Shown here: positions 2,321-15,341 of the stretch, in pieces
How positions within the stretch are numbered: position 1 is the first letter of the stretch
Layout of the letters: every line of letters begins with the position of its first letter
Notes under the pieces: generated by a model
Seen by the model: the letters and a program-made list of their open reading frames with translations, nothing else
Told to the model about the DNA's origin: nothing
Databases searched by the model: none
Origin: Candidatus Thorarchaeota archaeon
GTDB lineage: Archaea; Asgardarchaeota; Thorarchaeia; Thorarchaeales; Thorarchaeaceae
Assembly (NCBI GenBank): GCA_003345555.1
Contig: PRDJ01000055.1
Coordinates: forward strand, 1-20,921
Direction: 5' to 3'
Length of the DNA stretch: 20,921 nt
Translations under genes and position numbers: made by a program

Positions 2321-3619
2321 ATGCTCGCCAAAGACCTAGCAACAGCAGTCGAAATCAAGGATCCTGTCCACGGATACGTAGGCATGACCCAGATTGAGAA
2401 GGCCATACTTGACCTCAAGATGACCCAGAGACTTAGACGCATTTCGTACCCTGCGTGCACGCAGCTTGTGTATCCGGGTGCCGAAATGACTGCCATGAGC
2501 CGCATGCCGGGTAAGATGTATGTCACTCAGGTGCTCTTTGAGAACCTAGGCGCTGACACTAACGATATCCAAGTAGCTCGATTGGCCTCGATGTTGTTGA
2601 CATTAGCTCACGGACCGTGGTCGAATGTCATGGAAGAATACCTTGCAGTGAGAGGTACTGACCGCAGGAGACTGGCGCGTCTTATTCTTGAGGAATCCGA
2701 GATATCAGAGATCGTCAAAGGAAGCAGCTATTCCATCGAGGAATTGAAGACATCGATTGAGAGAGGTTTTCAGATTCGCGGTTATCGGGTAGACCTTCTG
2801 ACGATACCCATCAACCCACATCTTGTTGACAGTTTGATGAGAGATGCTTACTTTGCCGGGGTGAAGTATGCTCCTGTAGAGTTTCCTAGGTTGTTCACAA
2901 ATTCACGAATCCTACGAGATCACCTGGCTGTCGAACGAGGCTCGCTATTCACCTTGGAGTCTTACCTGTCTGCTGGGGCCAACATGTTCGAGGCTCTCTA
3001 CTATCACAAGGCCGTGAGAGCTGCGGAACTGATGCTGCTCCGCATACTCGATGAGGCCGGATCCCAAATCATAAAGTCGCCAGCAGATGACATTGGTTCC
3101 TTTCTTGAGTGCGACGACCTCTCGCTGTACAACACACTACTGACAGCTGTACCCGACGCATCAGAGGAGATGTCGACTGCCTGTCGTCTGTTTCAAGATT
3201 ACACCAGGAGATACCTCATCAAGATGGCAAGCACTAGGGCAATCTCGGATCCCGAGTTCCTAGGAAAAGTGGCTACAGTCGACGGTCAGTTTGAGATTGA
3301 GAGAGAGATCGCTAGCGAGGCCGGGATAGATCCAATGTACGTGTACATCGACTTCCCGGATCGTGTATCTGTCAACTACTACCCTGGTAAGTATCCTTTG
3401 GACAATCTCATGTTATTCGAGAGAGGATCAAGCGGGTATGAGCTGTGGCCAGTTCTAGAGATGAGTTCTGTGGCGCGAAGCTTGTCTCGACAAATGAAGA
3501 CAATCCGAATCTATACAACCCGCGGCTACCGTTCAAAGGTCAAGAAGTCCGGGGATAAAGTGCTTGAGAGTGTTGACACCAAGGGCGTCAAGCTCAAGGA
3601 TGAGAAGAAACGACAGTAG
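2321..3619 (+). CDS. HD-superfamily dNTP triphosphohydrolase-like protein (COG1078/SAMHD1-like), predicted catalytically inactive
   Basis: Family scaffold present (IKDPVHG, QRLRRI, LVYPGA, HGPWS, LMRDAYFAG, LYYHKAVRAAE), but the HTRFEH, HD and DxD catalytic positions are substituted. Confidence 0.85.
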   Translation: MLAKDLATAVEIKDPVHGYVGMTQIEKAILDLKMTQRLRRISYPACTQLVYPGAEMTAMSRMPGKMYVTQVLFENLGADTNDIQVARLASMLLTLAHGPWSNVMEEYLAVRGTDRRRLARLILEESEISEIVKGSSYSIEELKTSIERGFQIRGYRVDLLTIPINPHLVDSLMRDAYFAGVKYAPVEFPRLFTNSRILRDHLAVERGSLFTLESYLSAGANMFEALYYHKAVRAAELMLLRILDEAGSQIIKSPADDIGSFLECDDLSLYNTLLTAVPDASEEMSTACRLFQDYTRRYLIKMASTRAISDPEFLGKVATVDGQFEIEREIASEAGIDPMYVYIDFPDRVSVNYYPGKYPLDNLMLFERGSSGYELWPVLEMSSVARSLSRQMKTIRIYTTRGYRSKVKKSGDKVLESVDTKGVKLKDEKKRQ

Positions 3620-3773: not shown

Positions 3774-6050
3774 ATGTTCTCGTGCAGAAGATGTAATGAG
3801 CCCCTCTACGTCCGCAGCGCAGACCTTCATGACATGATACTGACAATGGACGTACAGTGTCTTAGCGGTCACAGAGGTGTCAGAAGGGTAGCTGAGCACG
3901 AAGCAAAGGAAATGACGAATGACCTGTTCAAGAAGATGTACGTCTGCCTTGAGTGCGGTCTCAACATGAGTCTCATAGATTCGCAGACTGCAGGCATCAA
4001 GGTATATAGCACATTTCTCTGCCCGATTCACGGTCCGCAGAAGAGAGAGTATCCCCTAGCTTTTGCACCTGCAGTCGTCTTGGCGGGTGGAGACGTTGAT
4101 AGTCCCAAGTCGATTATAGACTCATTCAGGTGTCCTCAATGTGGACAGACGTATGCTGTGAGCGAAATCTCCGAGAGACGTGGTATTCTTGAACTATTCA
4201 TACGATGTCCAAACGGCCACAGATCTACAAGGTATGTTCCTCGCTCAACTGAGGCCCCGCTATTGAAGAGCATACTCCAGCGAATCGCCTACTGTGATAT
4301 CTGCGGCCTTCCAGGGGCGGTGTCGCGTATTGAAGAGCGACGTGATGAAGCAAGAGTGATTACCTCGTGTCCCGAGCACGGCCTGTTGAAGAAGGATGTG
4401 CCAACAAGCATTCTGCCTATTCTCAAGGAAGCCGTCGAGGAGATTCCGCCAGATGCGATTGTGAGGGCAATGCTGATCTCTCGCTCCACCGGTAGGCTAC
4501 TTGCCATACGCTCAGTCGAGGAGTTCCAAACCGGTTACAGATTCCGTTGCAGTAGTCCTAGTAACAGTCATTGCATAGACCGCGTTATCCCGATTGTCTG
4601 GAATGATAGCGTCAAGGACCGGATTGCCACGGCTCTTCTTTCCTGCACCGACTGCGGCCTTCTTACTCATATTCTTGATGCCAGAGAAACGCGTCGGGGT
4701 ATCGACTTCGATGTAGTTTGTCCCATTCACGGAGTTCAGGAGCGATCGGTCCCTGTAGAGGTTTTCAAGTACGTCAAGGAGAGAGAACCAGGCATAGATC
4801 GTGAGCCCTCAATAGTTCGAAGTCTTACTTGCCAAAGGTGCAACATGCCCCTTGTGTTGCGTGACGTCGAGAATCGAAGAGGTCTCTCCGAGTTTGACCT
4901 GGATTGCCGAAACGGACATCGGACCAAGCGATTCTTTGTACCCAACCTTGACCAAAAGACACTCGTGAAGATGTATGTTCATTTGTATCAGTGTCCTGAG
5001 TGCTACGAGCCTCTGGGTCTCGTATACGCAAAGGAGTCTGGACGGGAGTCCCGAGTAGTTCTCTTGTGTCCCCTTCACGGAAAGATTGTTCTGGATGTTC
5101 CACATGATCATGCTGAGGCGATGCGCGCCGCCTATACAGAGATTCAAGCAGAGCGAGCGAGGCCCCCTGTCGAAGCTCCGGAGCCAGAACCTGAGGCCCA
5201 CACTGAGACTCTTGTTCAACCTATGGAAGAGAGGATCGAGGAAGTGAAGGTAGCGCGCGGATGTGATATCATTGGCGGCAAGTTTGATTACAAAGTCAAG
5301 GTGAAGAACGACACGGGTTACGTTGTGACAAACGTCACTGTGAGCATAGTTGCATTCCCTCAGGATTGTATGGAAATGGCAGGTGAGACAGTCAAATCCA
5401 TCCCGCGAGTAGAAGTTGGAGGCTTTCGCAGCCCCCAGTTCACTCTGTTTCCTACAAAAGACTGCGTGCAGGGCAAAGTTGTTGCCACTGTCTCATACAT
5501 AGACTTCCGCGATCAGCTGCACACGTTACAAGTTGAGCCGTACATAATCCGGTCTGTTTGTGATTTGCTCAAGCCCTCCGACAAGACATCGAAAGAGTTC
5601 GACTTGCTGCTGACCAATCTAACAAAGACCAATCAGGAACAGATCATGGAGTGGAACGCACGCGTGCTTTTCACCAAAGCTGAGAAGCTTCTGCCTGCAA
5701 AGAACTTCCACATAGTTGACAGGGACGAGAAAGTGGTCAACGCAGAGTTCATCGGCACGATCAGGGGCTACGCCGAGGGTAAGTACACGGGCAAGAAGGT
5801 TGCCGTCGTGTTTCTGATTAGCGGCCCCGAGACCGGCCGACATGCTCAGGTAAAGGTTGATGCACTCGGCGAAGATATCGCGATGCTACCCATCACCATT
5901 GATGAGCTGGCTGAGAGCATGGATTCATGGATCTGTCTGAGATGTGGTGCGCCCTTTGATGCGGAGCAGGTGCAGGCGCTAGAAGAAAGAAAAGCTGTGA
6001 ATTGCAGATACTGCTCTCACACTCTCACGATAGGGCTCTATCTGCAGTAG
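3774..6050 (+). CDS. Multi-zinc-ribbon repeat protein with C-terminal Ig-like + platform (adaptin/coatomer appendage-like) module and terminal C4 zinc ribbon
   Basis: 758 aa. Eight CxxC-x21-C-x(2-3)-H units (one degenerate) over aa 4-460, a Pro/Glu linker, a beta-rich domain at aa ~490-596, an alpha/beta domain at ~597-718, and CLRC-x19-CRYC. The coding call is confident; the domain names are inferred. Confidence 0.7.
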   Translation: MFSCRRCNEPLYVRSADLHDMILTMDVQCLSGHRGVRRVAEHEAKEMTNDLFKKMYVCLECGLNMSLIDSQTAGIKVYSTFLCPIHGPQKREYPLAFAPAVVLAGGDVDSPKSIIDSFRCPQCGQTYAVSEISERRGILELFIRCPNGHRSTRYVPRSTEAPLLKSILQRIAYCDICGLPGAVSRIEERRDEARVITSCPEHGLLKKDVPTSILPILKEAVEEIPPDAIVRAMLISRSTGRLLAIRSVEEFQTGYRFRCSSPSNSHCIDRVIPIVWNDSVKDRIATALLSCTDCGLLTHILDARETRRGIDFDVVCPIHGVQERSVPVEVFKYVKEREPGIDREPSIVRSLTCQRCNMPLVLRDVENRRGLSEFDLDCRNGHRTKRFFVPNLDQKTLVKMYVHLYQCPECYEPLGLVYAKESGRESRVVLLCPLHGKIVLDVPHDHAEAMRAAYTEIQAERARPPVEAPEPEPEAHTETLVQPMEERIEEVKVARGCDIIGGKFDYKVKVKNDTGYVVTNVTVSIVAFPQDCMEMAGETVKSIPRVEVGGFRSPQFTLFPTKDCVQGKVVATVSYIDFRDQLHTLQVEPYIIRSVCDLLKPSDKTSKEFDLLLTNLTKTNQEQIMEWNARVLFTKAEKLLPAKNFHIVDRDEKVVNAEFIGTIRGYAEGKYTGKKVAVVFLISGPETGRHAQVKVDALGEDIAMLPITIDELAESMDSWICLRCGAPFDAEQVQALEERKAVNCRYCSHTLTIGLYLQ
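3783..5153 (+). repeat. Protein-level tandem repeat: 4 x (A-type CxxC..Cx[N/S]GH + B-type CxxC..CPxHG), super-period 116-117 aa
   Basis: First Cys of each unit at aa 4, 58, 120, 174, (236), 291, 353, 407, giving spacings of 54/62/54/62/55/62/54. Confidence 0.9.
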
Positions 6051-14144: not shown

Positions 14145-15341
14145 TTACTGCGTCATCAGTTCCCAGGGAATTTCGTAAGCTCTGCTAGGAAATTCCTTCT
14201 CTAAGTCTTGCCTAGTTCGGGTTAGGACGGTATTCACTGGTTTTGCCCCCAAGAACCCTCGGGCCTCTCTCACAACTGATTGGAACAGGGGTCTGAACCC
14301 ATCGGTAATGGTCTCTGGAGTTATGCTTCCTCTCACAAATGCAGTCGTGAGCGAGCTTTTCACGTCCAAATCCAGTGTCTCTTCAAAATCGACAAATGCC
14401 AACCACGGGTGCGCGTCTAGGAGCGGATTCCGAGATTCAGAGAAAATCCGATAGGCGGTTCTGAATCCCAACAGCTTTGCGTACCTGTTCATCATGGTCT
14501 TCAATGCGGTCAGGTGAAGGACGAATACGGCCTGAGAGGGTGACACTCTCTCGACTGCCCTGTACCTAGCCAGCAACGCGATATCGTCTAGAAATCGCTT
14601 GAGATCCGAAGTCTTCACTTTCTCTGCAGCGATAGCCAGAGGGGTCTCTCCGTCAAGCTCTGAGAGTGCCTTTGTCGTTTCGGCCGATATTCCCTTGACT
14701 CTAGCCTTAGCACCCACGAGTGCGGTTGTCTGGTAGATATCATCCGGCTTCACCGGGTTAGTGATTGTGACCGCTTTCTCCCAAGTAGCCTCTGCAACCC
14801 AGTTGAGGGCAACGTCGATTGGTACTTCCAAGAAATCAGCCGCTTCTTTGACAGTGCAGACGGCTGGAATAAGTCTGAGAAGGGCTACGACTTCCGCATC
14901 TCTCGTGTAGAACTGCCAGTCACGCTTGACCTGAATCGTGCTGTCCGGCTTCACCGAGTCTTTGAGGAACTCGTCAAGAACGTAGTGGTCAAACCTCGTG
15001 TGAACGGCAAGGTCTAGGTCAACCCATCTTAGGACATTAAACTGCTCCTCAAACCTTGTGATTGTTCTCCTCAGTTTCTCCCTAAGGTGAGCTGTGTCTC
15101 GTGTGACAGAAAGAGCGCCGAGTGTCCACGTGCCAAACTCTACGAGAATCTCATAGTCCGCCCCCTCAAAGGCTCTCGCTTGAGAAGTGACTGACCGGGT
15201 TGCTTCATCGAAGAACGACGTCATAGCAACGATGAAGGATGAGATGAGATGAGGGTCGAACTGAGGCGGGTCTTCGAAATCGTGGTTATACATACAGACC
15301 CCGGTCTCGCGTTTGACTATGTAGATGCTCTTGACTTCCAT
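14145..15341 (-). CDS. Longin-domain protein with tandem winged-helix-like repeats
   Basis: N-terminus IYIVKRETGVCMYNHDF...DPHLISSFIVAMTSFFDE fits the longin pattern. Two ~67-aa units start at VKPD (aa 130 and 197) and have wHTH-like patterns (TVKEAADFL; LDGETPLAIAAE). Confidence 0.7.
   Translation of the reverse strand: MEVKSIYIVKRETGVCMYNHDFEDPPQFDPHLISSFIVAMTSFFDEATRSVTSQARAFEGADYEILVEFGTWTLGALSVTRDTAHLREKLRRTITRFEEQFNVLRWVDLDLAVHTRFDHYVLDEFLKDSVKPDSTIQVKRDWQFYTRDAEVVALLRLIPAVCTVKEAADFLEVPIDVALNWVAEATWEKAVTITNPVKPDDIYQTTALVGAKARVKGISAETTKALSELDGETPLAIAAEKVKTSDLKRFLDDIALLARYRAVERVSPSQAVFVLHLTALKTMMNRYAKLLGFRTAYRIFSESRNPLLDAHPWLAFVDFEETLDLDVKSSLTTAFVRGSITPETITDGFRPLFQSVVREARGFLGAKPVNTVLTRTRQDLEKEFPSRAYEIPWELMTQ

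Follow-up and report, generated by a model that had tools for sequence, protein, structure and literature searches.

A predicted ear-like C-terminal module on a zinc-ribbon scaffold in a soluble thorarchaeial protein

The stretch of DNA analysed here (the window) is the 20,921 nt of contig PRDJ01000055.1 from a Candidatus Thorarchaeota archaeon (assembly GCA_003345555.1; Asgardarchaeota). The open reading frame (ORF) at window positions 3774–6050 (+) is a genuine, conserved gene with 194 close homologues. It encodes a soluble protein of 758 aa, for which no membrane span and no signal peptide are predicted. Eight zinc-ribbon units are followed by an acidic hinge and then by a C-terminal module of a beta-sandwich, an alpha/beta platform and a four-cysteine (C4) zinc ribbon reading CLRC...CRYC, and in predicted structures this module takes the shape of the appendages, or ‘ears’, of AP-2 and COPI. 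Nucleotide 5241 corresponds to codon 490, and the stop codon occupies 6048–6050; the remaining coordinates are collected in Table 1. In eukaryotic vesicle coats, the origin of which is debated in eukaryogenesis, ears act as hubs for interactions, and sites on the ear platform and sandwich bind motifs of the DPF/W, FxDxF and WxxF types.

The module (aa 488–758) was modelled with AlphaFold2 (AF2) from an alignment of 53 sequences of diverse copies, without templates. The model is confident, with a predicted local distance difference test score (pLDDT) of 95.6 and a predicted template modelling score (pTM) of 0.82, and consists of a beta-sandwich (model residues 4–107), a short junction, an alpha/beta domain (119–230) and a ribbon (232–262). 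The ribbon is itself a confident part of the model, with weak Pfam matches only, all to zinc-ribbon families. The top 15 matches in a Foldseek search of the PDB are all appendages of AP-2 alpha/beta2 or COPI beta/gamma (E 1.9e-10 to 6e-7, approximately 240 columns); below these lie chains of the ribosome–Sec61–TRAP translocon, chains of the Fanconi anaemia core complex, and BBS9/BBS7. Alignment with VIA-align gave Z 17.3 over 223 residues at 3.8 Å for beta-COP (9qpq_H), Z 15.6–16.1 over 210 residues at 4.2–4.6 Å for AP-2 alpha ears, Z 14.7 for the beta2 ear and Z 12.1 over 188 residues for BBS9. An exhaustive VIA search of 48,161 representative chains, independent of Foldseek, again ranked the ear families first, and its two-subdomain matches are all ears or BBS9; single-domain matches in it reached at most Z 12.7 for generic Ig-like folds and Z 9.7 for helix-grip folds. 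Additionally, a shape search of the ESM Atlas returned eukaryotic alpha-adaptin ear clusters (TM 0.64/0.71), and a language-model feature search returned alpha-adaptin ear clusters as weak leads (0.75).

Taken singly, both subdomains resemble those of ears. Model residues 1–108 align with the Ig-like sandwiches of the alpha, beta2, beta-COP and gamma-COP ears. The TBP-like platform alone (model residues 110–231; aa 597–718) aligns with the AP-4 beta4 ear (2mj7), which is a platform only, at Z 13.2 with a root-mean-square deviation (rmsd) of 2.4 Å over 112 residues, while other helix-grip folds reach at most Z 9.7. A single superposition covers both subdomains in an ear-like orientation and, together with the pTM and a conserved junction motif, indicates one rigid unit. 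Conserved motifs run through the whole module: RG..G....K.K..N and GFxSPxFxFxPTxDCVxG in the sandwich, IRxVCDLLxP, and NF, GxAxGKYT, GxDxxM and E in the platform. A complex prediction for two copies of the module scored 0.12 against a mark of 0.42 and was counted neither for nor against.

The preliminary description of this DNA, made from the sequence, had proposed a Pro/Glu linker, a beta-rich domain, an alpha/beta domain and a C4 ribbon. The strings quoted in it (YKVKVKNDTGYVVTNVTV, RVEVGGFRSPQFTLFP, GKVVATVSYID, DLLKPSDKTSKEFDLL, KNFHIV, GYAEGK, VAVVFLI, VKVDA and IDEL) are all present in the 758 aa translation, and the AF2 model and the composition bear out all four parts. Its reading of an appendage-like sandwich and platform agrees with the ranking of ears in both structure searches, and the contrary outcome that it named, a CARDB or other surface Ig domain with no platform, did not occur; the platform is present and is matched by that of the AP-4 beta4 ear.

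Each trunk unit is a three-stranded sheet plus a helix with a zinc site of the C2CH type. Seven intact CxxC...C-x2-3-H sites were found by motif scan, starting at aa 4, 58, 120, 174, 291, 353 and 407. The fifth unit (approximately aa 228–290) is degenerate; in most orthologues it retains the cysteines lost from the 758 aa protein. The AF2 model of the array (pLDDT 91.8, pTM 0.80) drops in confidence only at the hinge, and the eight units are predicted to form one rigid body. No global analogue of the array was found in the PDB (Foldseek, TM ≤0.16). Beta-propeller matches of the array model (TM ≤0.16, rmsd >19 Å) were read as artefacts of repeated beta-hairpins. The isoelectric point (pI) is 8.0 for the array and 6.2 for the module.

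The hinge, RARPPVEAPEPEPEAHTE, is acidic and Pro/Glu-rich and is the sole low-confidence stretch in the N-terminal model. It starts with a K/R-P-P-[VI]-E-[AV] motif that is kept in nearly all orthologues and continues as an acidic stretch of variable length; the motif may be a short linear binding motif. The module is thus placed, as ears are, at the C terminus behind a flexible hinge. A HEAT/alpha-solenoid trunk (Adaptin_N) was not found in the protein, the trunk being the eight zinc-ribbon units.

Table 1. Parts of the 758 aa protein and their window coordinates
Feature	Position	Strand	Basis
Whole gene, 758 aa plus stop	3774..6050	+	Translation; orthologues share an MFSC start
N-terminal scaffold, aa 1–462, eight zinc-ribbon units	3774..5159	+	Motif scan and AF2
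Acidic Pro/Glu hinge, aa 463–490	5160..5243	+	pLDDT 58–68, pI 4.4, orthologue alignment
Ig-like beta-sandwich of the predicted ear-like module, aa 491–595	5244..5558	+	AF2, Foldseek, VIA-align, conserved motifs
Junction (IRSVCDLLxP) and predicted alpha/beta platform, aa 596–718	5559..5927	+	AP-4 beta4 ear match (2mj7), conserved motifs
C4 zinc ribbon (aa 719–750; C721, C724, C744, C747)	5928..6047	+	Invariant cysteines; pLDDT 94–97

The module is widespread in the phylum. An exhaustive search of representatives gave 400 clusters at E ≤1e-3, and 92 of 201 genomes have a match to the module. Within the source's own family 41 of 43 genomes have matches, with 2–9 in each; two other families have matches in 38 of 40 (weaker) and 5 of 5 genomes, and the searched genomes of another three families yielded no module match (0/21, 0/19 and 0/10). 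The relatives with names belong to Thor-, Hel- and Lokiarchaeota. The source genome itself holds three copies, namely the 758 aa gene and, on a different contig, two neighbours in tandem (L004:4657–5757 and L004:6180–8051), each with module and ribbon behind two membrane spans. This pair comprises a 366 aa protein and a 623 aa protein with a helical middle of approximately 300 aa, for which no Pfam match was found.

A survey of carriers, as proposed in the preliminary description, placed the module on membrane proteins, on HEAT repeats, in tandem modules and on winged-helix/Vps28-C proteins. A hydrophobic span is present in 100 of the 131 representatives of at least 300 aa. Many relatives are of type I, with a signal peptide, an ectodomain (SBBP propeller repeats, beta-helix, PKD, leucine-rich repeat or bacterial Ig domains), a Thr/Pro-rich stalk, one span, an Arg/Lys run, and the module 23–109 residues further on. 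In the 33 relatives with a span just upstream of the module, the summed Lys and Arg residues number 4 in the 15 positions before the span and 158 in the 15 after it; the module is therefore cytoplasmic. One group of relatives has two complete modules in tandem, and small members anchored in the membrane are encoded in tandem gene arrays.

Among soluble carriers, proteins of 404–485 aa join HEAT repeats to the module (L005:2652–3866 (−), L006:2946–4166 (−) and L013:3767–5224 (−)), a miniature adaptin-like layout. The HEAT_2 form of approximately 405 aa occurs in Thorarchaeia, and the 485 aa form consists of HEAT repeats, module and terminal ribbon, with a weak Adaptin_N match (E 0.009); no copy of the HEAT and module protein was found in the source genome, which is 93 % complete. 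A protein of 788 aa from another family of the phylum (L012:3929–6295 (−); E 1.9e-21 with the family hidden Markov model) consists of DDRGK/UFL1/PCI winged helices, the module and Vps28-C, the last directly after the platform, where the 758 aa protein has its ribbon. [quoted passage not shown]

Two earlier claims need qualifying. A zinc array had been described as replacing the HEAT or propeller trunk: the trunk–hinge–ear layout stands, but a one-off replacement does not, because paralogues with a HEAT trunk exist, so that the zinc array counts as one trunk among many. Likewise, of the claim of a ‘eukaryotic-signature’ module the ear fold holds up and a strict eukaryotic signature is lost, since the fold is also reported from Euryarchaeota (Makarova et al. 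2024; 10.1101/2024.02.06.579148). Module and ribbon together behave as a cytoplasmic unit that is mobile between carriers. The modules of zinc-array proteins form one clade nested among membrane-tethered ones in a quick maximum-likelihood tree, a placement that is only a hint because the tree is midpoint-rooted and its supports were not read.

Given the modelled fold, the module is probably (at roughly 70 %) an ear-like protein-docking unit carried on a hinge and a rigid zinc scaffold, and a member of one Asgard family of mobile modules. Sandwich, platform and C4 ribbon are modelled as one rigid ear-shaped unit, tethered by the short flexible acidic hinge to the eight-unit zinc scaffold. This unit would present a docking surface recruiting one or few conserved partners, as eukaryotic ears do, and the zinc scaffold might supply a second binding surface, by which the protein could bridge partners; docking and bridging are inferred, while fold, domain order, hinge, family spread and cytoplasmic location are what the computations show. 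Every carrier retains the motifs of the module, as would suit a shared ligand or partner. Among the paralogues there are links of a trafficking type, namely HEAT_2 with the module, and DDRGK/UFL1/PCI with the module and Vps28-C.

Several observations weigh against a docking unit of this kind. Sequence identity to ears is only 6–14 %. By hmmscan the module matches zinc-ribbon families only, with no Pfam ear family at E ≤10 (PF02883, PF02296, PF09066 and the COPI equivalents), and ten divergent relatives also lack a match to a Pfam ear family. Sequence searches of Pfam, NCBIfam and the PDB were uninformative for aa 490–718, yielding only zinc-ribbon noise and a beta-arrestin match at E 0.33, and a profile of the family had no significant match to PDB sequences. 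The sandwich and platform folds are each widespread on their own, all of the fold evidence consists of predicted structures, the module has no known partner, and the conserved gene neighbourhood contains no trafficking or ESCRT gene. Weak Pfam matches among the relatives are to GAE_BBS1 (best E 0.0095), TRAPPC13_C and CARDB. Because no sequence match was found, homology with eukaryotic ears rests on structure and on published work; from the predicted structures we infer homology rather than convergence.

Four other genomes preserve the local gene order (HD-associated protein, 758 aa gene, flavoprotein, DUF2070, PadR, two ABC transporters), with protein identity of approximately 60 %; their orthologues, likewise of 758 aa, thus lie in conserved synteny. 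No mu/sigma-like or coat genes are present in the neighbourhood; the rest of the genome was not searched for them. The conserved neighbourhood points to no function. The HD-associated gene (window 2321–3619) lies directly upstream on the same strand, a position kept in the four other genomes, and HD_assoc_2 is the sole Pfam match of its product. In two related genomes a 618 aa zinc-array paralogue (L007:5810–7666 (−) and L008:6062–7918 (−)) is located between the orthologue and the gene for the flavoprotein. The tail of this paralogue resembles a platform remnant followed by a ribbon and matches the module profile only marginally; the paralogue has no counterpart in the window. Elsewhere in the window, a 398 aa ORF at window 14145–15341 (−) has no Pfam match at E ≤0.001.

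The best-surviving alternative, unlikely as it is, places the protein on the ESCRT side of membrane biology, as an ESCRT-0/I-like cargo or ubiquitin adaptor rather than part of a coat, with the ribbon standing in for the Vps28-C of relatives. The position of Vps28-C in the 788 aa relative is what this would predict, and an ESCRT-0-like role has been proposed for archaeal ear regions by Makarova et al. (2024; 10.1101/2024.02.06.579148), who connect these regions with ESCRT loci. The source genome does have Vps22-, Vps25-, Vps4- and Snf7-like genes. These are on another contig, however, and the 758 aa gene is not close to the ESCRT cluster in its own genome or in four others; nor does any ubiquitin-binding or steadiness-box signal rise above noise. 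A Vps28 family search of the source genome found only the N-terminal part of the Vps22-like gene in the ESCRT cluster on the other contig. Adjoining Snf7 and Vps4 in that genome is a gene for a 546 aa protein (L016:13239–14879 (−)) with weak zinc-finger and GRAM/PH-like matches only; it calls to mind the Znr_PH_CC_SB protein that Makarova et al. (2024) describe from Asgard archaea.

Rather unlikely, too, is an assembly of receptor tails, in which the module would serve mainly as a domain for oligomerization or signalling output and the soluble zinc-array protein would pair with those tails. Such a role would suit a family made up mostly of membrane proteins that carry the module close to the inner face of the membrane, and the tandem modules of one paralogue group, the tandem arrays of small membrane-anchored members and the nested position of the zinc-array clade in the quick, midpoint-rooted tree can be read in the same way. 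Pairing of modules has no direct evidence, however, and the architecture by itself does not tell it apart from docking of a third protein.

Convergence would make the ear likeness an analogy, uninformative on function, between ears and a generic CARDB-type sandwich joined to a TBP-like or helix-grip domain. The sandwich alone does match unrelated Ig-like domains at Z 10–12.9 (TRAP subunits, transglutaminase barrels and complement MG domains among them), and KA1 and helix-grip proteins match the platform by itself at Z 9–9.7; a Lokiarchaeal member has the single weak CARDB match (E 0.03), and no sequence profile links the family to ears. Yet only ears and BBS9 match across the two subdomains with order and orientation preserved, these matches rank above those to single domains, and the match to the AP-4 ear platform stands 3.5 Z units above other helix-grip folds. 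Furthermore, the module is cytoplasmic, whereas CARDB domains are found on the surface, and Hel- and Lokiarchaeal proteins in the PF02883 list of Eme et al. (2023) share its layout and, by eye, its motifs. Convergence is therefore improbable. Identity with CARDB or another surface Ig domain was rejected on the presence of the platform, the cytoplasmic location, and the lack of a signal peptide or span in the 758 aa protein.

Binding of DNA or RNA by the zinc ribbons and the TBP-like domain, as might be read from the automatic JGI homologue names (RPC12/RpoP, Elf1 and topoisomerase zinc ribbon), the weak zinc-ribbon family matches and the TBP-like platform, is very improbable, and its DNA-binding form was rejected, as the family matches all fall below cut-off and are each limited to a single CxxC knuckle, the array shows no pronounced basicity, the pI of the module is on the acidic side, and the module is also found on the tails of membrane receptors.

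The family is of interest beyond this locus. Thorarchaeia, which lie outside the published Pfam-based list of ears, carry 2–9 matches to the ear-like module in nearly every genome searched from the source's family, and the carriers of the module differ widely, membrane proteins with the module on their cytoplasmic side being the commonest. As a small, confidently modelled and zinc-stabilized domain it offers a testable handle for a partner search. A bolder and improbable extension is that ear and ribbon are a common cytoplasmic handle of a large set of Asgard membrane proteins, type-I receptors with propeller, beta-helix, PKD and leucine-rich repeat ectodomains among them, that soluble zinc-scaffold and HEAT carriers gather these tails, and that such a system was a pre-eukaryotic cargo-adaptor ancestor of the AP/COPI ears. 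The findings do not establish coats or vesicle traffic in Asgard archaea.

The ear part as such is already known in Asgard archaea. Eme et al. (2023; PMC10307638, supplementary file 5) list 33 standalone Alpha_adaptinC2 (PF02883) proteins from Lokiarchaeales, Helarchaeales and Sifarchaeia. The list includes no Thorarchaeia and no zinc-ribbon-array protein, and, unlike its entries, neither the 758 aa protein nor the tested relatives match PF02883. Its Lokiarchaeal entries are of approximately 330 aa and end in a CxxC...CxxC ribbon like that of the module; its Helarchaeal entries are membrane proteins with, as judged by eye, the motifs of the module. In the account of Makarova et al. (2024; 10.1101/2024.02.06.579148), the ‘adaptin appendage regions’ of archaea, Euryarchaeota included, are composed of IG and TBP domains. 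In Asgard archaea these are combined with Vps28-C and helix-turn-helix (HTH)/PCI domains; a Methanosalsum protein has an added zinc ribbon, and another is joined to a GOLD domain via a membrane span. Their layout of PCI, appendage and Vps28-C is that of the 788 aa relative. Asgard ears, then, are a sandwich and platform, in many cases with a C4 ribbon or Vps28-C behind them, and the module is built in this way. The regions of Makarova et al. are linked to ESCRT loci, whereas the 758 aa gene lies outside an ESCRT neighbourhood. Their text does not mention an eight-unit zinc trunk or widespread use as type-I tails, and two recent structure-based surveys of Asgard archaea do not discuss ears. In the papers searched there is no description of the trunk of eight zinc units, of the expansion in Thorarchaeia or of how widely the module is used as a receptor tail.

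Compared with eukaryotic systems, the module is closest to the ears of AP-2 (alpha and beta2) and of COPI (beta- and gamma-COP; 1w80, 1b9k, 1e42, 9qpq_H and 1r4x), which share its order of subdomains, a similar orientation and a C-terminal position after a hinge, with Z 12.8–17.3 over 206–223 residues; unlike for those ears, no evidence of mu/sigma partners, clathrin boxes or the known peptide pockets came up for the 758 aa protein. The AP-4 beta4 ear corresponds to the platform only, while the module has sandwich, platform and ribbon. The BBSome subunits BBS9 and BBS7 (GAE plus platform; 6vbu and 6xt9) also match across two subdomains, with scores below those of the AP/COPI ears; they carry a beta-propeller and a coiled coil or helical domain, whereas the 758 aa protein has neither propeller nor coiled coil. 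The ears of AP-2 and COPI are mounted on a HEAT solenoid; the 758 aa protein, in contrast, bears its predicted ear on a zinc-ribbon array and adds a C4 ribbon after the platform.

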